Positions 9,505 to 20,296 of a DNA stretch of 64,000 bases are shown here, piece by piece. Position 1 is the stretch's first letter; every line of letters begins with the position of its first letter. The notes below the pieces were generated by a model that made no database searches, was not told the DNA's origin, and saw only the letters and a list, made by a program, of their open reading frames with translations. This DNA comes from Vulcanimicrobiota bacterium. Its GTDB lineage: Bacteria; Vulcanimicrobiota; Xenobia; Xenobiales; JADMJV01. A program made the position numbers and the translations under genes. The stretch is from assembly GCA_050250895.1 (NCBI GenBank), contig JBFWNU010000001.1:2150210-2214209 (forward strand), written 5' to 3'.

Positions 9505-10410
9505 TTGCCTTGGTCGGGCCGGCGGGCCGGCGGGCCCAACCGGGGTTCACCCCGTGATTTCACGGTGTGGACAAGCTTTCAGCGTCGATTCAGGGCCGCC
9601 TGGCAAGCTGGGGGCATGATTGGTTCCGTGTCCGCATTTCGCCCCGGGCTGCCGGCCCGCACCGCCAGCAAGGCTACGGATGAACTCGAGCAGCGCATCG
9701 AGATGCTCGAGACCCTGTCTCGTTCTCGTGGGGGCAGCGAGTTGCAGGAGAAGATCAAGCAGACTCGGGCTTTACTCGCCGAGGCTCGCAAGCCCGACCT
9801 GACCTTCAGCGACCAGACGAAGACCGAGGTCCGCGACTATCTCAAGGGCAGTCAGGTACTACCCCAGGCTTTCGACACCCACCAGAACGAGCAACTCGAG
9901 GTTTTCGGCAAGCTCGTCCAACGCGGGATGCACTTCCGCCGTTCCGGTCAGGAATTGCCCCCCGATCAGGCATTTCTCGGGCTCATCGCCAAGCCTTATC
10001 ACGCCCTGGACGAGCAGATCTGTTTCCAGTGCCACCTTCCCCAGGGCATTCGTGCGGTTACCCTCAGGCCCCAATATCTGCCGGCCGTCAACTTCTTTTT
10101 GGAGCGCACCCTCGAGGGCGAGGTCTTCTATCGCAAGCCCGATGCCAAGTCGTCGATGTTCGACCCCCAGCCCAATCGCGACGGCTATGTCGAGATCAAG
10201 ACCGTAGATGATTTCGTCAGCCATTATCACGACCATCCCGAGCAAGCCGTGGTTCGCTTTGGGGGAGTTTACACCACTCGAGAGCAGATCCAGAGCGACC
10301 GCGACTACATCGCGGCGCTGGCCGCCAATCACGACAGCAATCTGATCGATGACCTGGGCGACCACCTGATGGTGGGTGGGGTCATGCTCGACAAGAACCC
10401 CGACTGGTAG
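9505..10410 (+). CDS. hypothetical protein (function unknown; convergent with the SagB gene)
   Basis: 301-aa ORF; the likely true start is the internal Met (MIGSVSAF...) at ~9616. No recognisable catalytic motif; contains CFQCH. Confidence 0.4.
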   Translation: MPWSGRRAGGPNRGSPRDFTVWTSFQRRFRAAWQAGGMIGSVSAFRPGLPARTASKATDELEQRIEMLETLSRSRGGSELQEKIKQTRALLAEARKPDLTFSDQTKTEVRDYLKGSQVLPQAFDTHQNEQLEVFGKLVQRGMHFRRSGQELPPDQAFLGLIAKPYHALDEQICFQCHLPQGIRAVTLRPQYLPAVNFFLERTLEGEVFYRKPDAKSSMFDPQPNRDGYVEIKTVDDFVSHYHDHPEQAVVRFGGVYTTREQIQSDRDYIAALAANHDSNLIDDLGDHLMVGGVMLDKNPDW

Positions 10411-10435: not shown

Positions 10436-11638
10436 CTACATCAAGGCGAACTCGGCCACCGAGCTTTCTTCTTCATAGACTGTCCCGGCCAGGCGGCAGA
10501 ACAGGTCAGAGTCGCCGTAGCCGAGGGCGCAGACCGAGAGGCCCAGGGCGGTGGCCACCAGATACATCGTTTGGAGGATGGCTCCGGCGTTCTTGAGGGC
10601 CAGCGAGTAGGCGATGGCGCTGTATTTCCAGGCCAGCGCGGGAAAGCGGGCCGCCATCGTGACCACCACCGCGGGCGGACGCTCGATACCCAGGGCCCAG
10701 GCGGCGTTGAACAGCATATCGAGGCGAGCCTGGGGGGCCGAGGAGAAGAGTTCCAGAGTGTGGTCCAGGGGATCGTAGCGGTAAAAGCCCGGCTCGAGCC
10801 CGACGCAGGCTCCCACCGTCAGATAGAGTTCTTGCTCGAAGATGGCTCCGGCGCTGGCGAAGGGGCGCAGCTTGAGGCCCGGCTCCTGGGCCCGGGCGCA
10901 GTAGTGCAGAAAGTCTCCCAGGCGTCCAAGGTCCAGGGGGGGTTGGCCGGGTTGGCGGCGGCTGCGGCGGTTGGCCAGCACCTCGTCGAGAGCTTGAGCG
11001 AGACGACCGTTGGGAGGGCCCAGAGCCAGGCGACCCTGGGGCTGGCGAGGCCGGCGCTGGGGGGGGTCGAGTCGGCCCGCAAAACGGCGGGTCGCTCCCA
11101 TGGGGTGGCGATGGCGGCCCCGTCGGGAGCGGGCGTGGAAGAACAGGTCGTGGAATTCCCAGACGGCCAGGTGAGGCGCTTCATCTTCGTCCGGCCCGGT
11201 GACGTGGAGGCCGCACTCGGCCAGCAGCTGGCAACCCCAATCCGGGACCAGCAGGGCGGGCAAAGCGCACGGGTCGAGGACCACAATCCTGGCCAGGGCC
11301 CGGGGTGACTCGATCAGCAGCAGGCGACCCTCGCGCCGGCAACAGGCAAAGCGCGACAACCGATAGGTTGCCTCGGGTTGGTAGGCCAGGGCTTGATAGT
11401 AGGGCGAGAGCAGTTGGCGGGCCAATCTTGGACCCTCGGCGGTGACCAGCACTTCTTCCAGGCAACCGTTGCGCAGCAACAGTTCGGCCCGGGTCAACAG
11501 TTCCACGGCCTGGTGGGGGGCAAGGGCGGTCAGCTGTTGACGGGTCAGGCCCTGCTCGAGGTCGGGGCTCAGTTCTGTCCATTGCCGAGGATCAGCTCCG
11601 GCAATCGCCCGCAGACGCACTTCAGACGTTGAGGTCAA
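10436..11638 (-). CDS. SagB-type FMN-dependent dehydrogenase (nitroreductase fold; TOMM azoline oxidase) with ~190-aa N-terminal extension
   Basis: C-terminal half has the nitroreductase/SagB pattern (PSAGAIFEQELYLTV...AWKYSAIAYSLALKNAGAILQTMYLVATALGLSVCALGYGDSDLF). The 5' end overlaps the upstream YcaO gene by 17 nt, indicating translational coupling. Confidence 0.8.
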   Translation of the reverse strand: MTSTSEVRLRAIAGADPRQWTELSPDLEQGLTRQQLTALAPHQAVELLTRAELLLRNGCLEEVLVTAEGPRLARQLLSPYYQALAYQPEATYRLSRFACCRREGRLLLIESPRALARIVVLDPCALPALLVPDWGCQLLAECGLHVTGPDEDEAPHLAVWEFHDLFFHARSRRGRHRHPMGATRRFAGRLDPPQRRPRQPQGRLALGPPNGRLAQALDEVLANRRSRRQPGQPPLDLGRLGDFLHYCARAQEPGLKLRPFASAGAIFEQELYLTVGACVGLEPGFYRYDPLDHTLELFSSAPQARLDMLFNAAWALGIERPPAVVVTMAARFPALAWKYSAIAYSLALKNAGAILQTMYLVATALGLSVCALGYGDSDLFCRLAGTVYEEESSVAEFALM

Positions 11639-13712
11639 CAGGGTTCACCTCGGCTTCGGGAGTGGAGGCGGTGAGCCAACCCATGGCCACCGGGATGTCG
11701 TAGAGGCGCCCCGGAGCCAGGCGACGCCAGTGGTGGCGCATGCCGGGCACCACCACTCGGGCCACGGGCAGGCCGACATCCGAGCGAGTCAGGTCGACCA
11801 CCAGCATCTCGAGCCCGCGGGCGGCTACCAGTTCGTTGATGGTGGCCAGCGGATCGGGCCAATCCGGCAGCCGCAGGTCTTGCCAGGGCCGTCGCTCGGC
11901 ACCGGGGCGAAGATAGGCCCAATCGTCTACGCACAGGTTATAAGAGCTGAGTTCGTCGCGCTCGGGCAGGCCGCGGCCGGGGCGCTGGGCCTGGGAAAGG
12001 GGTTGGGGCAGGAACTGGTTCATCTCGGTGAGGGCGCGCATGATGGCCTGGCGAGGGTCGTGGTGAGCTCCGAAAGCCAGCGTGAGCTGGTCGGGCTCGG
12101 GTGCGCGGCGGCGGCTGACGGCCACGCAGGCTGGGATGGCGAAGTCGGCGGTCACATCCAGCACCCAGAAATCGCGGTCCATCTGGTCATAGGCCCGACG
12201 CAGGCGCCCGAGATAGTCGTCATCCAGGCCGGTCAGGTCAATCTCGGGGCGGGTCAGCCGGTGATACCACCACATGGCCACGCTGTCTCGCTCGACCAGT
12301 TCGAAAAAACCCTGGACCACGGCGTCCTCGAAGCTCGCCCCGGCGGCGCAGCCGTTGGATTCACCCACTGTGTAGAGGTGGTCGGCTTCGGTGTAGCCAT
12401 AGTGGACAAAGCCCGCGGCCAGATAGCGCCAGCCTTGGTGGGTCAGCGACCAGGCCTTTACCCAACGGATTGGCTGGTTCTCGTCGAGGGGGCGGGGCAC
12501 TCGGAGCTTGGGCGAAGAAACGCGGCCGCCCCCCTGCTCGAACTGGCGCTGGCTAAAGAGCATACAATGGTTGGGATGGATGGCCCGCTCGCCCAGTTCG
12601 AGACAGCTGGCCACGCGGTGAGGCTCTTCGCCGCGCCACAGCGAGCTGTGGCGCTCGAGGGCTTCGGCCAGCGCACTGACCCGGGCCTGGGCCGCGGTGG
12701 GTCCCTTCCCCCCCGCGAAGCTCTCGCGTCGGGTCTTCCACTGCTCAAGACTTTTGGCCAGCTGAGGGCGCTGGTAGGTCGAGCGAAAGACGTGCAAATT
12801 GTGGCTCAGTAAGGGCTCGAGGCGGCTGACCAAACCGGTCAGCGGGCTGACGTGGTGGCTATAGGTTTGGTAGAAGGCCTCAGCATCGAGCTGGCGGGAT
12901 AGGTTGGCCGTGCCGAGCCGCGGCGGCCCCGGCTGGCCAGGCGCTTGTCCGCAACGGTGGCATTGCGGACGTCTTATCACGGTGTGCTCGTGACTCTGGC
13001 CGGTAGCGGTGGCGAAGGTCATCAGCTTCTCGAGTCCCGCTCCGGTGGCAGCCCGGATCAGCAACTTGTTGACCACCAGATTGTAGACCAGGGCCAGCGA
13101 GGTGGGCAGGGTTGGGGCGGGGGTCGGCCGAGAAACCACCAGGCAGCGCGGCTCGCGGTTGCGTTCGAGGCGGTGGGCCAGGCAGTGCCAGCAGGCTCCG
13201 GGCTCGCCCAGCACCGGACCCAGCCAGGCCTCGACTCCGCCGGGCTTGACCAAGAAGAAGGGGCCTTGCAATTCGCCCAGCTCTGGTTGGAGATAGTCGT
13301 CCACCAACACCACCAGGAGGCCTCCGTCGACCCCGACACTGGCTGACTTGAAGGCCTCCAGCAGTGGCTCGTCGGGTTGGCTCGAGAGATTCACCACGTT
13401 CACCGACAGGGGTGGGGGGGCGAGGTCCTGGGCCTGCCAGTACGGGTGCGTGTCGTGGTTGACCAGCAGGCTGTCGACCTTGAGTTGGACCACCGCCTCC
13501 AGCAATTGGTGCGAGGGATACTGGCTGGCGAGCGCTCGCACCAATCCGGTGAAATCGAGGCCGCCGTCGAGTAATGGCAGCAGGTCGTTGTAGACTTTAC
13601 CCTCGAGCAGACGATCGCCGCCATCGGTCAACAGTAGAACACCGGCCTGGTCTGGTAGGGGGGCCGCCGTCAGGTGAGCTTTTAGCCGCAGGGGGTGGGC
13701 TAGAAAGTCCAC
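11622..13712 (-). CDS. fused TOMM cyclodehydratase: E1/ThiF-like docking (C) domain + YcaO (D) domain
   Basis: 696 aa. The C-terminal half carries the YcaO ATP-binding signature (ESNGCAAGASFEDAVVQGFFELVERDSVAMWWYHR) and a proline-rich C-terminus typical of azoline-forming YcaOs. The N-terminal half is Rossmann-like E1-type without an obvious glycine loop, as in SagC/PatD N-domains. Begins 3 nt after the precursor ORF stop. Confidence 0.85.
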   Translation of the reverse strand: MDFLAHPLRLKAHLTAAPLPDQAGVLLLTDGGDRLLEGKVYNDLLPLLDGGLDFTGLVRALASQYPSHQLLEAVVQLKVDSLLVNHDTHPYWQAQDLAPPPLSVNVVNLSSQPDEPLLEAFKSASVGVDGGLLVVLVDDYLQPELGELQGPFFLVKPGGVEAWLGPVLGEPGACWHCLAHRLERNREPRCLVVSRPTPAPTLPTSLALVYNLVVNKLLIRAATGAGLEKLMTFATATGQSHEHTVIRRPQCHRCGQAPGQPGPPRLGTANLSRQLDAEAFYQTYSHHVSPLTGLVSRLEPLLSHNLHVFRSTYQRPQLAKSLEQWKTRRESFAGGKGPTAAQARVSALAEALERHSSLWRGEEPHRVASCLELGERAIHPNHCMLFSQRQFEQGGGRVSSPKLRVPRPLDENQPIRWVKAWSLTHQGWRYLAAGFVHYGYTEADHLYTVGESNGCAAGASFEDAVVQGFFELVERDSVAMWWYHRLTRPEIDLTGLDDDYLGRLRRAYDQMDRDFWVLDVTADFAIPACVAVSRRRAPEPDQLTLAFGAHHDPRQAIMRALTEMNQFLPQPLSQAQRPGRGLPERDELSSYNLCVDDWAYLRPGAERRPWQDLRLPDWPDPLATINELVAARGLEMLVVDLTRSDVGLPVARVVVPGMRHHWRRLAPGRLYDIPVAMGWLTASTPEAEVNPVDLNV

Positions 13713-13715
13713 CTC

Positions 13716-13943
13716 TTACGAGGCGGAATAGGTGCAGCCGCAGCTGTCGCAGCCGCCATCACAGCCGTCGGTGCCCGGACCAGCGTTGACCGCCAGGGTT
13801 TGGCGGATATCCAGTTCTCGCATGGCGGGGGTGATCCAGGGCTTTTTGCTATCGGCTGCGTCCATCTTCGCAAGTTCTTCGAAGGTGCTTAGCCTCCTTC
13901 TGGGGTTGACCGCTTGGATTGGCAAAGATACCATGCCGTCCAT
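13716..13943 (-). CDS. RiPP precursor peptide (leader + Cys/Ser/Thr/Asp-rich C-terminal core ...GTDGCDGGCDSCGCTYSAS)
   Basis: Small ORF immediately 5' of, and co-oriented with, the YcaO-SagB operon. C-terminal 19 residues contain 4 Cys, 4 Ser/Thr and 3 Asp in Gly-rich spacing, then stop. An alternative in-frame start at 13865 (MDAADSKKPWITPAMRELDIRQTLAVNAGPG...) gives a 49-aa peptide and avoids overlap with the divergent kinase gene. Confidence 0.6.
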   Translation of the reverse strand: MDGMVSLPIQAVNPRRRLSTFEELAKMDAADSKKPWITPAMRELDIRQTLAVNAGPGTDGCDGGCDSCGCTYSAS

Positions 13944-14796
13944 GGCCAGTCGCTACCGCGCCTTCGAACTCGAAATCACCTCTGAATTCCCCCTTCCAGC
14001 CGCGCCCGGCAGTGGCGACCTCGAGGCGGACGTAACCATCGTGGCGGGCCGGGTGCCCGGGAGTCTGAGGTTTCCGTCGGACACTGGTTTGTTATTTCAG
14101 GCGGCTCCCGATGAATTCTTGCTGTCGGTCGCGGGCATTGCCCGTTACTATGTCGAGGCGGGTCATCAGATCACCGTCGAGCCGGCCGCGGGCGCCAAAG
14201 CCGACGCGGTCGAGGTTTTTCTCTCGGGCTCCGCCATGGGGGCCCTATTGCATCAGCGCGGCCTGCTGGCCTTGCATGCCTCGGCGGTCGCCCTGAGAGA
14301 TATGGCCGTCGTGTTCGCTGGACCCTCGGGGGCCGGCAAATCGACCCTGGTGAGCACCCTGATAGGGCGTGGCTACGAGATCCTTTGTGACGATATCTGT
14401 GTCCTTCGCCAGGACCTGGTGTTGCCGGGTTATACCCGCCTGAGGCTCTGGAAAGATAGCCTGGAGGGATTGGGCCTCCAACCCGGGCGACGGATCCGCG
14501 AGGGTATCGAGAAGTTCGAGTTCGACCACTCGGGTCGCGCCGGCTCGCTGCCCTGTCGGCAACTGTTTTTGCTTGGCTCAGGAGAAGCCGTCATCGAGCC
14601 GGGCAGCCGTCTCCAGCATCTTATTCGCAACACCTATCGGCGCCGCTATTTGCGGGGTCTGGGCCGGCAGGAGCAACACTTTCAGGCCTGCGCCCGGCTG
14701 GCCGGTCGGCTGCCCATGGCCTGGCTCGAGCGCGGCCGCGTGTTCGGACAGCTGCCCGGGCTGCTGGAGGAATGGACGGGTGCGGCCAGGGGATGA
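13933..14796 (+). CDS. HprK C-terminal-domain-like P-loop serine kinase (RiPP-associated HPr kinase homologue)
   Basis: Walker A GPSGAGKST embedded in AVALRDMAVVFAGPSGAGKSTLVSTLIGRGYEILCDD, as in the HPr kinase/phosphorylase C-domain. The annotated ORF starts at 13732; the start is chosen at the internal Met 13933, divergent from the precursor. Confidence 0.6.
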   Translation: MPSMASRYRAFELEITSEFPLPAAPGSGDLEADVTIVAGRVPGSLRFPSDTGLLFQAAPDEFLLSVAGIARYYVEAGHQITVEPAAGAKADAVEVFLSGSAMGALLHQRGLLALHASAVALRDMAVVFAGPSGAGKSTLVSTLIGRGYEILCDDICVLRQDLVLPGYTRLRLWKDSLEGLGLQPGRRIREGIEKFEFDHSGRAGSLPCRQLFLLGSGEAVIEPGSRLQHLIRNTYRRRYLRGLGRQEQHFQACARLAGRLPMAWLERGRVFGQLPGLLEEWTGAARG

Positions 14797-15632
14797 GGCG
14801 GCTGGTCTGGCTGGCGTCTTACCCGAAGTCGGGAAACACCTGGTTTCGAGCCTTCCTGCGGGCCCTGTTCAGCGGCTCGGTCACTCTTAACGCGCTGGGC
14901 TTCGAGCACTCGGGACGGCGTCGCGACTATGACGAGCTACTGGGCATCGAGACGGCTTATCTTCACGATCATGAACTCGAGCTGCTGCGGCCGGAGGTCT
15001 ACCGGGCCAAAGCGCGCGAGTGCCCGCACCCGGCCCTGGTGGTCAAGACCCACGAGGGCTACCGCAAGCTCGGCGACGGCGGTTGCTTGTTTCCTCCCGA
15101 GTGTACTCGGGGAGTGGTCTATCTGGCCCGCAATCCTCTGGACGTGGCGGTGTCTTACGCCTTTCATCTGGAAGAGGGCGACTTCGATCAGGCTATCGCC
15201 AAGATGGGCAGCCAGCAGTCCTGGGGTATGGCTCGCGACCGCTACAGCCATCAGACCAGCCAGTTGCTGCCGGACTGGAGCACCCACGTCTCGGGCTGGC
15301 TCGACAATCACGAATTGCCGGTGCATCTGGTTCGGTATGAAGCACTGCTCGCGCAACCCGAGGCGACCTTCGCCGAGGCCCTGGCCTTTCTCGGGCTGGA
15401 GTACTCGCCGGAGCAGGTATCCCAGGCCGTCGAGTTGAGCAGCTTCGAGCGCTTGCGTGAGCAGGAGCAGCGACAGGGCTTCTGGGAGAAAATGCGAGTC
15501 GGGGTCGAGTTCTTTCGGCGCGGCCAGGCGGGCCAATGGCGTCAACACTTGAGTCCTGAGCAGAGGGACAGGGTGTTGTCCCAGCACCACAACGTGATGG
15601 CCAGACTGGGCTATCTTCCGGAGGGTGACTAG
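14772..15632 (+). CDS. PAPS-dependent sulfotransferase family protein
   Basis: 5'-phosphosulfate binding loop YPKSGNTW, followed by the RNPLDVAVSY 3'-phosphate-binding region. The alternative start at ~14793 forms an ATGA overlap with the kinase stop. Confidence 0.75.
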   Translation: MDGCGQGMRRLVWLASYPKSGNTWFRAFLRALFSGSVTLNALGFEHSGRRRDYDELLGIETAYLHDHELELLRPEVYRAKARECPHPALVVKTHEGYRKLGDGGCLFPPECTRGVVYLARNPLDVAVSYAFHLEEGDFDQAIAKMGSQQSWGMARDRYSHQTSQLLPDWSTHVSGWLDNHELPVHLVRYEALLAQPEATFAEALAFLGLEYSPEQVSQAVELSSFERLREQEQRQGFWEKMRVGVEFFRRGQAGQWRQHLSPEQRDRVLSQHHNVMARLGYLPEGD

Positions 15633-15939
15633 CCAAAGAATCGAATCACTCCCCATGGGTTTGGGTAGGGACGCCATTTTGGTGCGACATCGTCACGTGG
15701 TCTCGACCGAGCTACCGGATGGAGAGGCGGCTCTGATGGACATGCAGAGCGGGACCTACTTTCATCTCAACAGTGTGGCTAGCAGGCTGTGGCAGCTGAT
15801 CGCCGAGCCGATCTCACTGGCTCAGGTTTTGACCGCTCTCGAGGATGAGTTCGAAGTCGAAGCGGACCGCTGCCACGACGAGGTGGTCAGCCTGGTGACG
15901 CAGTGGCTCGAGCGTGGCTTGAGCCAGGTCGTCGCGTGA
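15625..15939 (+). CDS. PqqD-family protein (stand-alone RiPP recognition element, lasso-peptide B1-like)
   Basis: ~100 aa. Pattern LMDMQSGTYFHLNSVASRLWQLI...VLTALEDEFEV...VVSLVTQWLERGL typical of PqqD/RRE proteins. Overlaps neighbours on both sides (operon). Confidence 0.75.
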   Translation: MTSQRIESLPMGLGRDAILVRHRHVVSTELPDGEAALMDMQSGTYFHLNSVASRLWQLIAEPISLAQVLTALEDEFEVEADRCHDEVVSLVTQWLERGLSQVVA

Positions 15940-17687
15940 CCCTGGCTGGCTCTTCGGGTAGCCACGGAGTCTATCAGCTGGAATGGCCCGTCACCCCGTG
16001 GTGCCGGGACCGGGTCAGTTTGGTGGAGGGGCTCGAAAGCCGGGGGCTTGCGGTGGGGGGTCACGTGCGTCTGGACTATGGCAAAGAGCTGCAGGCTCGA
16101 CTGGGGCTGGCCGAGGGGACGTCGGCGGCCGAACTGGTGCTGGCCGCCTGGCGAACGCGGGGGCCCGATTGCCTGACGATGCTCTTTGGAGAATTCGCCT
16201 TTGCCGTCTATGACGGCGAGGCCCTCTGGCTGGTTCAATCCCCGTTCGTGCGCTGGCCAATCTACTACACCGAGACTGCCGAGGGCCTGGCCTTTCATTC
16301 CAGCGCCCGCGCCCTGCACCGCCTGCTGGACCGAGCACCTCGACTGCACGAGCGAGCCCTGGCCGCCTGGGCAATTCGGCAGCGTCTGGTGGAACCCAGC
16401 GATACCTTTTTCGAAGGGGTTTCGCGGGTCGAGCCGGCTGGATTGGTGAAGGTGGTCGAGGGGCGGGTGGTGAGCCGCCATTGCTGGTGGAAGCCAGTCT
16501 GGAGTCCGGCCCCGGCCGGTCGCGACCTGGCCGAGCTGGCTGCCCACCTCACCGATCAGGCCGTTCGCTCGCGGTTGGGCAGTCGACCGGTCGGGTGCTA
16601 TCTGAGCGGAGGCCTGGACTCGAGCACTCTGACGGCCCTGGCCTGCCGGGCGCTAGGGCAGCAGGGGCGCCGCCTGATAGCCTTCTCTTCGGTCTTGCCG
16701 CCCGGATACGCCGGCCCGGAGCGCGACGAGCGAGAGCCGATCGGCGTGATGGCTCGGCATTTCGAACTGGAGGTAGTCGAAGTGGTGCCCACTCGGGGTC
16801 CGACCTGCGACCTGCCGGGCCACACCGAGCTGGCCGAATCCCCCTACCTATTCCCCAAGCAATATGTCTTCGCGGCGATGCTCGAAGCGGCCCGCCGACG
16901 CGGCCTGGCCACCATTCTCGATGGCGGCTTCGGAGAGTTGACCCTCAGCCACGATGCGCCGACGGCCTTTGCTTATCTGGCTCGTCGGGGTCGCTGGCGC
17001 GAGCTGGCCGGATTGGTCCAGGCCTGGGCGCCGCGGGCCGGGCTGCCCTGGTGGAGAGTATGGTTCGCGACGGTGCTCAGGCCGCTTCTTCCAACGCGCC
17101 GAGTTCCGGCGCCCTGGCTGCCTCTGCAGGCCGACTTTGTGGCCCGCCAGGGTCTTCGCCCTCGGTTTGAAAGGCCCCGCGCCCAGGGGTGGTTGCCACC
17201 GATGGAAGGGCTGACATCGGTCCTGACCGCGGTAGGAAGCAGCGCCCTGCCGTTCTATGACCGCCATTTCGGGGTCGAGGTGCACAAGCCGTTTCTCGAC
17301 CGTCGCCTGATCGAGTTCTGCCTGACGCTCGACCCGGCCGACTTCTGGCTCGACGGCTGGCGGCGGGGGCTGGTGCGCCAAGCCATGCGCGACATCCTGC
17401 CGCGGGCCATCGTCGAGCGGACCGATCGGGGCGCTTTCGCGCCCGACTTCTTTGCGCGCTTTCGCCAGGGAGCTCCGGCCTTGCGAGCCGAGTTTGGGTC
17501 TCAGGGGCCCACCGATCTGGCCGCCCACTACTTCGACCTGGAAAGCCTGAGAAAGCTGCTTGACCAGCTCACCAGCCGTCCCGCCAGCGAGAAGTCACCC
17601 CAGGGAGCCCAGGCCAAGCAGGTTCTGCTGCGCAGCCTGGGGGGCGTCCGCTTTCTACGAAGTCTTCACTCCCAACCCGTCCAGTGA
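15903..17687 (+). CDS. asparagine synthetase (AsnB)-like PP-loop ATP-pyrophosphatase (lasso-cyclase / amidotransferase-like)
   Basis: PP-loop VGCYLSGGLDSST. N-terminal Ntn-glutaminase-like fold (GEFAFAVYDGEALWL) lacks the catalytic N-terminal Cys, as in lasso-peptide lactam synthetases. 594 aa. Confidence 0.8.
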   Translation: MARAWLEPGRRVTLAGSSGSHGVYQLEWPVTPWCRDRVSLVEGLESRGLAVGGHVRLDYGKELQARLGLAEGTSAAELVLAAWRTRGPDCLTMLFGEFAFAVYDGEALWLVQSPFVRWPIYYTETAEGLAFHSSARALHRLLDRAPRLHERALAAWAIRQRLVEPSDTFFEGVSRVEPAGLVKVVEGRVVSRHCWWKPVWSPAPAGRDLAELAAHLTDQAVRSRLGSRPVGCYLSGGLDSSTLTALACRALGQQGRRLIAFSSVLPPGYAGPERDEREPIGVMARHFELEVVEVVPTRGPTCDLPGHTELAESPYLFPKQYVFAAMLEAARRRGLATILDGGFGELTLSHDAPTAFAYLARRGRWRELAGLVQAWAPRAGLPWWRVWFATVLRPLLPTRRVPAPWLPLQADFVARQGLRPRFERPRAQGWLPPMEGLTSVLTAVGSSALPFYDRHFGVEVHKPFLDRRLIEFCLTLDPADFWLDGWRRGLVRQAMRDILPRAIVERTDRGAFAPDFFARFRQGAPALRAEFGSQGPTDLAAHYFDLESLRKLLDQLTSRPASEKSPQGAQAKQVLLRSLGGVRFLRSLHSQPVQ

Positions 17688-18040
17688 GCTTCCCAGCTGC
17701 CATCATCGCGCCGAAAGACGACCCAGCTTCTGACCCGATACATTTGCCCTTCCTCGATCCAGGTGACGGGGTGCGAACTGACGTAGCGCTGGACCTGTTC
17801 GTCGGTGAACGTGCGCACGGTCACCTTCGGGGGTGGTCGGTGGGCCGGGGCAGGCGCTGACTGGACCGGCGCCTCGGCCACCTGCGTGGCTACCGGTTGC
17901 TGGGGTTGGTGCGGGGCCGAGCCGGGAGCCAGGGCCAGCGAGAGTAAGCACATCAAGACGACAAAGGCGAGAACGTAGCGCACTGGCTTAGATTCTGTGC
18001 CCACTTCAAGCGGTCCTCGTTGGAGGTCCTGGGCGCCCAT
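17666..18040 (-). CDS. hypothetical small exported/membrane-anchored protein
   Basis: Hydrophobic N-terminal segment ([19 protein letters not shown]) followed by a Pro/Ala/Gln-rich linker. Overlaps the ends of both neighbours; the real start is probably internal. Confidence 0.3.
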
Positions 18041-20296
18041 CCACGGAAGGAACCGGCGGGGTCATCAGAGATGCGACAAGAGGTCAATTTGACCGGCGAG
18101 GGTTTTCAGCTCGAAATAGAGCGGGGCCGATTTGAATGGCCCGGCGACGGGTCATTGCGCTTCTATGGGATTCCTGGGGCGTATCTTTGGCTTGACCCTT
18201 CCATGAAGATGATGCTACTGCCCTTCGTGCAAGAGGTCGGTAGAGATCTATTCACTCTGTTGGTGGCCCGGTCATCGAGTCACGGTACCCGCGAAGACTA
18301 CGAACAGATGGTCAACGAGCTGGCCCCCACCTTCGACCAGGGCTTTTTGGCCTGGGGTGAGGCCGTTTCGACCGCTGGCTGGGGACGCTTTGAGCTGTGC
18401 GAGTGCCAGCCCGAGCGGTGCCACGCGGTGGTAATCATCCGCAACGCCTGGGAGCGCATTATGCAAGCCGGCCTGGCCGCCGACGAACGCTGGGGATGCC
18501 CTTTCCTGCAAGGCAAGATCATCGGCATCTTTTCCCATGCTTTCGGCCGCAACTGTTGGGCCGACGAGACCCGGCGCGACGACCTGGGCGAGCACGATGT
18601 GGCCTTCACGGTGGCCCCCTCGACCAAGACCATCGAAACCGAAATCGAGTTGCTCCGCCAGGCCAGTATGCAAGAGCGCGAGCGGGCCCTGGCCGCCGAG
18701 GTGCGCAAGAAGACCGACGAGTTGCAAGAGGCCCGGGCCGCCCTGGAAGAGTATTCTCGCCAACTCGAGACCAAGGTGGCCGCGCGCACCCGCGAGCTCG
18801 AGCGAAGCAACCTGCAATTGCGCGAGGCCAAAGCCAAGGCCGAAGAGGTCAACGAACTCAAGTCGATGTTCCTGGCCAGCATGAGCCATGAGATCCGCAC
18901 CCCCATGAACGGCGTGATCGGCATGACCAGCCTGCTCGAACGCACCGAACTCGATAGCGACCAGCGCGAATTCGTCGAGATTATTCGCAAGAGTGGCGAC
19001 TCGTTACTCAATATCATCAATGACATCCTCGATTTCACCAAGATCGAGGCTGGCCGGATCGACCTCGAGTCTCTGCCTTTCCAGCCCGAGGATGTGCTCG
19101 AAGAGGCCCTGGACCTGGTAGCCGCCCCGGCCACCGCCAAAGGTCTCGAGTTGGTCTCGCTGGTTTGTGACCAGTTGCCTCGACGGGTCGAAGGCGACCC
19201 TAGCCGGCTGCGCCAGGTGATGGTAAATCTGCTGGCCAACGCCGTCAAGTTCACCCGTCAGGGCGAAGCCCGGATCGAACTCTCGGCCCAATCAGAAGGG
19301 GATTTCTGGCGACTGGTCGGCAAGGTCAGCGACACCGGGCCCGGCATACCTCAGGCTCCTCGTCGCGATCTTTTCGAGCCCTTCGCGGGAGCCGTGATCT
19401 CCCGCGGCAAGGGCACCGGGCTGGGCCTGCCCATCAGCCGCCGTCTCTGTCGCTTGATGGGCGGCGACATCGGCTTCGAGACCGAGGTCGGGCGGGGGTC
19501 GACCTTCACTTTTTCGGCCCTCGTCCGAGCCCTTCCCAGCCAGGAGTACGAGCCTGAATTGACCGGTGCCGACATTCTGGTGATCGAGCCTGACCAGGGC
19601 CTTGGGGCCAGCCTGGTGGGGATGGTAGAGCGCCTGGGGGGCAAGGCTCGCCGATTGGCGGCCCCACCTCAGAGTTGGGGTCAAGAAGACGCGGTGTTGG
19701 TCAATTGGGCCGTTGGCAGCCAGCTCAAAGACTGCCCTCTACCAGTCGTGTTACTGGCTCCGCTCGGTTGTTCCAAGCGACCCGAACACGCCCTGACCCT
19801 GGTCCACAAGCCGGTCAAACGCTCCACGCTGGTGCGAGCGCTCAGGCCTCTCATCAAGCCGGGCGTAACTCGCCAGTCGCTGGACGACGGCGCCCAGAAT
19901 GGCGAGTTCTCTGGCCTCCGGGTTCTGTTGGTCGAGGACAATCTGGTCAACCAGAAGGTGGCCAGAATGATGCTGGCCCGACTGGGCATTCGAGCCGATC
20001 TGGCCAGCAACGGTCTGGAAGCGATCGAGGCGGTGGGGCGGCAACCTTACGATCTCATCCTCATGGATATTCAGATGCCTGAACTCGACGGCATCGGGGC
20101 CACCCACCGCATTCGCGACTGGGAAGAGCGAGAATCCCACCCGCGCCAGCGGATCGTGGCCGTCACCGCCGGGGCCATGGAGTCAGACCGCCAGCGCTGT
20201 CACCGAGCCGGGGTCGACGCCTTTTTGTCCAAGCCGTTCAAGTTACCCGAACTGGAACGGGCTATCCGAGCAGTTTTGCGGGAACCGCGAGGCTAG
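18020..20296 (+). CDS. hybrid sensor histidine kinase / response regulator with N-terminal uncharacterised sensory domain
   Basis: HisKA H-box [18 protein letters not shown]. HATPase_c (N, G1, G2 boxes: [15 protein letters not shown]). C-terminal receiver domain ([10 protein letters not shown]...[14 protein letters not shown]...K). Coiled coil before HisKA. Probable start at the internal Met (~18071). Confidence 0.85.

Follow-up and report, generated by a model that had tools for sequence, protein, structure and literature searches.

Lasso peptides of the paeninodin type are encoded by clusters that hold an HprK-like kinase, a discrete PqqD-type protein and an asparagine-synthase-like (Asn-synthase-like) cyclase, as in the systems of PadeK, of the polyphosphorylating ThcoK and SyanK, and of pseudomycoidin. 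Their precursors carry WxxP at -15, Thr at -2, a core that starts with Ala, Asp9 and a Ser end. The kinases phosphorylate the precursor while it is linear, at the C-terminal Ser, do not act on the threaded peptide and are tolerant of the remaining peptide sequence (PMC8498205), whilst a crystal structure shows the leader Trp at -15 bound by the paeninodin-like recognition protein PbaB1 (PMC13381572). HPr-kinase and sulfotransferase genes have already been noted in lasso clusters, with no role given to the sulfotransferase (PMC4289311, PMC8498205). Here, we analyse 64,000 nt (hereafter the window) of contig JBFWNU010000001.1 from a Vulcanimicrobiota bacterium (GCA_050250895.1, positions 2,150,210-2,214,209), in which a kinase gene and a sulfotransferase gene of this sort adjoin a short precursor ending in TYSAS. 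We consider it likely that the two are coupled tailoring enzymes of a paeninodin-like lasso pathway that has been joined to a YcaO/SagB pair in this Vulcanimicrobiota (Eremiobacterota) lineage. The kinase-sulfotransferase pair is ordinary for the lasso family; what is unusual is the combination with azole enzymes and the absence of the B2 leader peptidase.

The window resembles paeninodin-type clusters in the kinase, the discrete PqqD, the cyclase and each of the precursor features listed above. It differs from them in lacking B2, the nucleotidyltransferase and the ABC exporter, in having YcaO, SagB and a four-Cys core, and in that its precursor, PqqD and cyclase score under the NCBIfam lasso cut-offs. 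Its sulfotransferase is like Teg12, Teg14, StaL, SslST, RaxST and MbnS in being dependent on 3′-phosphoadenosine 5′-phosphosulfate (PAPS) and in lying within a peptide natural-product pathway, but unlike the sulfotransferases of glycopeptides and of other peptides that are synthesised by ribosomes and modified after translation (RiPPs) it is coupled to a kinase. As in systems for linear azole-containing (thiazole/oxazole-modified, TOMM) peptides, of which microcin B17 and the cyanobactin heterocyclases are examples, a fused leader-binding/YcaO protein and a SagB/ThcOx enzyme stand beside a Gly/Cys-rich core; the window precursor, in contrast to theirs, additionally combines a leader of the lasso type with ring-forming residues. 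Relatives of paeninodin that likewise have an HprK-like kinase, a PqqD-type protein and a short precursor are the linear polyphosphorylated peptides (LPP; Popov et al. 2026, PMC13381572). They differ in their YxxP leader, signal-peptidase-like cleavage, Ser3 phosphorylation and want of a cyclase, whereas the window has WxxP and a cyclase, and no SpI-type peptidase was seen in it. Both lasso and azole peptides rank among the major classes of RiPPs and are prized as scaffolds for antibiotics and drugs. In the literature searched we found no lasso peptide described as bearing thiazoles or as associated with a YcaO, and a mid-2026 review of interlocked peptides covers many lasso modifications but neither YcaO nor thiazoles.

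The kinase, the sulfotransferase and their precursor

The cluster occupies positions 10436-17687 and comprises seven genes, those for SagB, YcaO and the precursor on the minus strand and those for the kinase, sulfotransferase, PqqD and cyclase on the plus strand. Gene calls were judged against the curated cut-offs of Pfam and NCBIfam. A first-pass annotation of the sequence had placed a kinase, a sulfotransferase and a TYSAS precursor here, and all three were confirmed. In an alignment with 27 homologues the Walker A motif of the kinase, GPSGAGKST (residues 130-138), is invariant, as are His115 and Asp153-Asp154; a loss of Walker A residues on closer alignment was looked for and the motif is intact. 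When a profile of this alignment was compared with the PDB, it matched HprK/P (1jb1, E 5e-9) over the MHG...GDSGVGKS...ADD core. Matches of the single protein to family models were weak but specific, both for PF07475 (24.9 bits, E 1.6e-5; gathering score 33.3) and for TIGR04352 (38.7 bits, E 5.9e-10; cut-off 200). A precomputed table gives PF07475 and PF27840 for an identical protein (P0121), and the kinases of two orthologous contigs, L001 and L086, which are described below, are listed under PF27840 in their gene tables.

The sulfotransferase matched Pfam Sulfotransfer_1 (PF00685) at 101 bits (E 8e-29; cut-off 22). Among 29 homologues the YPKSGNTW loop (S9, P11, K12, S13, G14, N15, T16, W17) is invariant, and so are Lys85, His87, the 3′-phosphate motif (R113, P115, V118, S121), Arg242 and Trp249. 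The PAPS loop that had been described as intact is indeed so, and the PAPS-binding and catalytic residues are all retained. The nearest solved structures are Teg14, Teg12 and StaL (E ~1e-12), followed by animal cytosolic sulfotransferases. As judged from these alignments, the matches of the kinase and the sulfotransferase represent strong homology, not chance motifs. The stop codon of the kinase and the start codon of the sulfotransferase share 4 nt (ATGA). The sulfotransferase open reading frame (ORF) spans 14772-15632, and the ATG at 14793 (MRRLVW..., 279 aa) is the most likely start because an identical NCBI protein, from a Vulcanimicrobiota metagenome-assembled genome (MAG), is called so and because it gives the 4-nt overlap with the kinase stop.

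The 49-aa precursor reads MDAADSKKPWITPAMRELDIRQTLAVNAGPGTDGCDGGCDSCGCTYSAS, starts MDAADSKK and ends CGCTYSAS, and lies on the opposite strand at 67 bp from the kinase start; in both the window and L001 the divergent intergenic region has only this length. Its leader has WITP at -15 and Thr at -2, and its core has Ala1, Asp9 and four Cys (C11, C15, C18, C20), each in a G-C or S-C context. Given this gene context and the Ser-ending precursor, the kinase can provisionally be assigned to the lasso-associated C-terminal-Ser (PadeK) type, as had been suggested before the family was surveyed.

A longer precursor ORF of 75 aa was considered and rejected, as the L001 orthologue has the 49-aa form only. 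The extension (13866-13943, minus strand), in which an AGGAGG stands in frame 27 nt ahead of the start of the 49-aa form, is present in L086 and is probably untranslated because it is absent from L001. Two cleavage registers would each give an Ala1-Asp9 ring, one after QTL (AVNAGPGTD) and one after QTLAVN (AGPGTDGCD). The latter resembles the AGPGT start of paeninodin, whose core begins AGPGTSTPD, near the AGPGTD of the window precursor; the W-15/Thr-2 rule favours the AVNAGPGTD register.

A standard module of a widespread lasso-type family

A scan with the kinase alignment, at one genome per species, gave 281 relatives, and the best 80 loci were annotated with phmmer and family hidden Markov models (HMMs). 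These loci hold 90 kinase genes, of which 6 are too near a contig end for the neighbour to be judged, and they span Desulfobacterota, Chloroflexota, Acidobacteriota, Bacteroidota, Cyanobacteria, Entotheonella and others. A sulfotransferase gene lies immediately downstream of 56 of the 90 kinases. The two genes overlap by 4 nt in 35/57 pairs and are at most 15 nt apart in 50/57. Moreover, when approached from the sulfotransferase side, all six contexts inspected contained the kinase, PqqD and Asn synthase. The sulfotransferase is therefore tightly, translationally coupled to the kinase across many phyla. Besides the usual companions, namely PqqD, the Asn-synthase-like cyclase and short precursors, 34 loci have an ABC exporter, 25 a PF14907 nucleotidyltransferase and 14 an ATP-grasp protein. 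From this gene order we interpret the pair as a module that is standard in a lasso-type family of wide distribution. The first-pass annotation had singled the pair out at this locus; the pair is present as described, but it is a common lasso accessory and not special to the window.

Precursors were collected as small ORFs beside the cassettes, and 52 were left after removal of redundancy and of two evident false positives. The leaders share WxxP, and a Thr at W+13, which puts the Trp at -15, is found in 41/52. Counting the core from W+15, Asp or Glu occurs at core positions 7-9 in 41/52, as against 28% expected from composition, and most cores begin with Gly, Ser, Ala or Thr. Judged by sequence, the family precursors bear the hallmarks of lasso precursors. 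Ser is the last residue in 48 of the 52. In an unbiased test by regular expression, 48/82 matching small ORFs ended in Ser compared with 9.9% of all small ORFs. Phosphorylation of Ser25 is a well-supported part of the earlier interpretation, because the published specificity of these kinases and the counts of C-terminal Ser in the family both point to it.

Some cassettes show further variation. The locus of Solimonas sp. K1W22B-7 (CP031704; L092, 6764-16855) has the kinase, PqqD, sulfotransferase, a precursor ending in MEGTMYGPS and the cyclase, has no B2, and contains in addition two Sulfotransfer_3 genes, two Asp/Arg hydroxylases, a second kinase and an acetyltransferase. In another (L027, 12088-14549), PqqD and the precursor of a kinase-sulfotransferase lasso cassette are separated by two ORFs, one radical-SAM-like (619 aa) and the other a second sulfotransferase-like one (199 aa).

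The sulfate acceptor

The single Tyr of the core had been put forward as a plausible target of the sulfotransferase. An enrichment of Tyr in sulfotransferase-linked cores was tested and rejected: Tyr is found in 23/45 linked and 4/7 unlinked cores (Fisher p = 1.0), a comparison that lends the proposal no backing. Since about half of the presumed substrates have no Tyr, we infer that Tyr cannot be the general acceptor of the lasso sulfotransferase family, whilst Tyr22 is a possible acceptor in the window peptide itself. Sulfation of Tyr22 with phosphorylation of Ser25, giving a phospho-, sulfo- and thiazole-bearing peptide as first suggested, is a conceivable but doubtful outcome. It is consistent with the enzyme being a PF00685 member whose nearest solved relatives (Teg12, Teg14 and StaL) place sulfate on the phenolic hydroxyls of peptide antibiotics; these enzymes are its best PDB sequence matches and have the WIASYPKxGNTW loop in common with it, although identity is low and the matches are local, and their acceptors are phenolic whereas half of the precursors of the window family are Tyr-less. 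The characterised RiPP sulfotransferases RaxST and SslST also act on Tyr (PMC11143521), and Tyr22 is kept in four orthologous precursors despite a synonymous codon change. This conservation is uninformative, however, because the whole tail is equally unchanged. Moreover, Tyr is missing from 22 of the 45 linked cores and is no commoner there than in unlinked ones. An aromatic residue within the last five positions occurs in 29/52 precursors, with or without a sulfotransferase, and would equally fit the steric plug of a threaded lasso tail.

A non-terminal Ser or Thr (in the window e.g. Thr8, Ser17, Thr21 or Ser23), its position varying among family members, is about as credible an acceptor as Tyr22. 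Every sulfotransferase-linked core has at least one further Ser/Thr, with a median of 5 per core, Thr O-sulfation is known in methanobactins (PMC11143521), and the solved relatives also include alcohol and hydroxysteroid sulfotransferases. On the other hand, no internal Ser/Thr position is conserved in the aligned cores, and Thr8 is replaced by Met in the L086 orthologue.

The sole hydroxyl that is conserved across the sulfotransferase-linked family is that of the C-terminal Ser. Because of this, and of the near-obligate translational coupling of the two genes, the terminus is to be counted among the acceptor options. The sulfotransferase might act on phospho-Ser25 to give a phosphosulfate, or might cap a polyphosphate chain. 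We think this unlikely, although at most loci the genes show translational coupling, their linkage holds whichever side is sampled, and in pseudomycoidin a nucleotidyltransferase glycosylates the C-terminal phosphoserine (PMC8498205). A peptide phosphosulfate anhydride would be labile, and wherever the sulfotransferase and the PF14907 nucleotidyltransferase occur at one locus, as they do at many, both enzymes would be rivals for a single phosphate. We know of no PF00685 enzyme with a phosphate oxygen as acceptor, which also counts against a phosphosulfate, and the proposal is pure conjecture. A comparison by eye of the penultimate residues of linked and unlinked precursors revealed no motif. 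All told, we regard the phosphoserine terminus, a variable internal Ser/Thr, and Tyr where present as roughly equally likely acceptors. The lasso-linked sulfotransferase has been noted since 2014 and never given a substrate; the coupling and the Tyr result narrow the experiments needed.

Azole enzymes and conservation of the hybrid cluster

The YcaO protein scored over the cut-off of TIGR03604 (237.8 against 219.25 bits) and its leader-binding domain over that of TIGR03882 (79.3 against 36.9), as did SagB for TIGR03605 (132.9 against 78.4). The elements of a TOMM cluster were all found: the SagD-type YcaO cyclodehydratase with its leader-binding domain, the SagB dehydrogenase, and a core that has four Cys. 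Thiazoles, which the first-pass annotation had assumed, are plausible, as YcaO and SagB both exceed their TOMM cut-offs and the core has four Cys. The C-terminus of YcaO (11622-11660, minus strand) is EAEVNPVDLNV and is without a Pro-rich PxPxP; many azoline-forming YcaOs end in such a motif. The locus has two leader-binding modules, the discrete PqqD and the TIGR03882 domain fused to YcaO, for one 24-aa leader (13794-13865).

Identical order of the seven genes was found on two further contigs, L001 (a Candidatus Eremiobacteraeota MAG) and L086 (a sequencing-run assembly), whose proteins are 73-90% identical to those of the window. Among the loci examined, YcaO and SagB accompany the lasso cassette only in these three. 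A metagenome scan with the YcaO protein for more hybrids found as the nearest others proteins that are 31-38% identical, with no lasso genes nearby. The precursor family forms one cluster in a 5.8-billion-protein collection, and a precursor search found a single 90%-identical peptide. Apart from the leader, the three precursors vary at just two core positions, 4 and 8, the latter being Met in L086. Over the 17 codons of the tail DGCDGGCDSCGCTYSAS there are ~7 synonymous and 0 nonsynonymous differences between the three, and a fourth precursor variant, P0258, has the identical tail. A check of whether orthologous cores keep the C-terminal Ser and the Tyr found both in L001, L086 and P0258, with the entire tail unchanged. 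Against the two orthologous contigs the ratio of nonsynonymous to synonymous substitution rates (dN/dS) is 0.08-0.28 for all seven cluster genes and 0.16-0.19 for the kinase and sulfotransferase, with dS up to ~1.0. The cluster genes are under purifying selection.

Missing lasso components and the proposed pathway

A number of observations weigh against a paeninodin-like lasso pathway, and the absence of B2 is the first. B2 (PF13471) is present in 61 of the 80 related loci, directly after the sulfotransferase. A search HMM was built from 62 family B2 proteins and confirmed as PF13471, and with it no B2 was detected among ORFs of at least 25 aa in the 64-kb window (best E 0.14), nor on the orthologous contigs, of which L086 extends beyond the cyclase. 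Family HMMs likewise found no family-type ABC exporter in the window or the orthologous contigs. PqqD scored under the cut-off of NCBIfam lasso_PqqD_Bac (55 against 80 bits), the cyclase under that of the lasso model NF033535 (188 against 525), and the precursor under that of the paeninodin-family model NF033524 (18.5 bits, E 1.2e-3; cut-off 27). Within the family, 4 of the 52 precursors do not end in Ser, and in the literature searched no sulfated lasso peptide has been reported. As the window is without B2, a gap that the first-pass annotation did not mention, the maturation route is uncertain; forming a lasso would require a peptidase gene located elsewhere, if a lasso is made at all. B2 is a defining component that was searched for and not found, and for this reason we speak of a system that works in the manner of a lasso pathway and do not file it as a canonical member.

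The non-Ser ends are SSLG, APPG, SATK, GYVI and AGRC, with the kinase and sulfotransferase present (L082 9405-9829; L094 6751-6915; L006 1124-1345; L060 9590-9778), and they may be true exceptions or mis-called ORF ends.

B2-less cassettes occur elsewhere (L005, L027, L068, L070, L075, L083 and L092), and four of these (L005, L027, L075 and L092) belong to several unrelated lineages and have 7-10 kb flanks. Because such cassettes recur in other lineages with long flanks, the leader peptidase may be supplied in trans. Phage-tail-collar (PF07484) genes neighbour the cassettes of L005, L027 and L092, and DUF6916 occurs in L005 and L092 as well.

At the other extreme, no lasso might be formed at all, the product being an azole peptide that stays linear or is processed in some other way, or the locus a silent remnant in which the kinase and sulfotransferase have little or no role. 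B2, the ABC exporter and the PF14907 nucleotidyltransferase, which family HMMs did not find either, are all absent from the 64 kb and from both orthologous contigs, and the cyclase-free LPP show that an HprK-like kinase and a PqqD-type protein can serve linear peptides (PMC13381572). We nevertheless hold this to be improbable. All genes are intact and have been kept by purifying selection across three genomes at the dS values given above, the cyclase gene persists in translational coupling with that of PqqD, conservation extends to Ala1 and Asp9, and the recurrence of B2-less cassettes in unrelated lineages suggests a peptidase acting in trans.

Under the paeninodin-like pathway that we favour, PqqD would bind the 24-aa leader, with its Thr at -2, through WITP at -15, and the YcaO-fused leader-binding domain probably would bind that leader too. 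The kinase would phosphorylate Ser25 on the linear precursor, by analogy with the published paeninodin-type kinases and in keeping with the family-wide C-terminal Ser, and YcaO and SagB would turn up to four Cys (C11, C15, C18, C20) into thiazoles. A peptidase encoded outside the window would cut the leader after Thr-Leu, and the cyclase would link the amine of Ala1 to the side chain of Asp9. The sulfotransferase would transfer sulfate from PAPS, with the family acceptor most likely a site on or adjacent to the (phospho)serine terminus, or else a variable Ser/Thr. That the product is a lasso peptide with thiazoles in the threaded tail, phosphate and sulfate on the C-terminal Ser (as a phosphosulfate or as separate groups) and B2-independent maturation is a bolder proposal, to which we give a rather low probability. 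If real, a thiazole-bearing lasso with phosphate and sulfate would be without precedent both as a lasso-azole hybrid and as a sulfated lasso peptide. As a compact test system of seven genes from an uncultured phylum, the locus could serve for work on sulfation chemistry, on the compatibility of azoles with threading and on B2-independent leader removal.

Positions of the features and neighbouring genes

The features of the cluster are collected in Table 1. PqqD matched Pfam PqqD (PF05402) at 60.5 bits, and its longest ORF begins at a GTG at 15625. The cyclase matched Pfam Asn_synthase (PF00733) at 119.7 bits; its likely start is the GTG at 15936, from which the gene overlaps the PqqD stop by 4 nt and encodes 583 aa, and the L086 orthologue is called at 583 aa.

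Table 1. Features of the seven-gene cluster in the window, with the basis of each assignment.
Feature	Position	Strand	Basis or remark
SagB/ThcOx-type flavin mononucleotide (FMN) azoline dehydrogenase, 400 aa	10436..11638	-	TIGR03605, PF22767, PF00881
Fused leader-binding (E1-like) and YcaO cyclodehydratase, 696 aa	11622..13712	-	PF02624, 288 bits
Precursor, 49 aa, MDAADSKKPWITPAMRELDIRQTL / AVNAGPGTDGCDGGCDSCGCTYSAS	13716..13865	-	leader 13794-13865; predicted 25-aa core 13719-13793
Precursor residues	Tyr22 13728-13730; C-terminal Ser25 13719-13721; stop 13716-13718	-	
HprK-like P-loop Ser kinase (ScmC/PF27840 type), 287 aa	13933..14796	+	homologue alignment and HprK/P structure match
Kinase landmarks	His115 14275-14277; Walker A 14320-14346; Asp153-Asp154 14389-14394	+	
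PAPS-dependent sulfotransferase (PF00685), 279 aa	14793..15632	+	Pfam, homologue alignment, PDB relatives
Sulfotransferase landmarks	PKSGNTW 5′-phosphosulfate loop from 14823; catalytic His87 15051-15053	+	
PqqD-family RiPP recognition element (lasso B1 type), 94 aa from ATG	15655..15939	+	orthologues called at 94 aa
Asn-synthase-like macrolactam (lasso) cyclase	15903..17687	+	PF00733; best NCBIfam match is the lasso cyclase model

A 264-aa protein encoded at 9616-10410 on the plus strand was considered as the missing peptidase and, for want of evidence, rejected as a cluster member; it has no Pfam match, and a 43% homologue lies beside an esterase and a PemK toxin. It adjoins SagB in all three hybrid contigs and has only 17 representatives among 1.84 billion proteins. 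A confident AlphaFold2 (AF2) model (predicted local distance difference test, pLDDT, 85) gave no recognisable fold match in the PDB. The protein is probably a mere syntenic neighbour, because its 43% homologue stands in an unrelated context.

The cluster is flanked by housekeeping genes, those for a dipeptidase, a GGDEF protein, a flavin adenine dinucleotide (FAD) oxidase, a hybrid histidine kinase and a helicase. After the cyclase (17666-20296) come a membrane-anchored 124-aa ORF on the minus strand and a hybrid histidine kinase/response regulator, which may be regulators; the 124-aa ORF is syntenic in L086.

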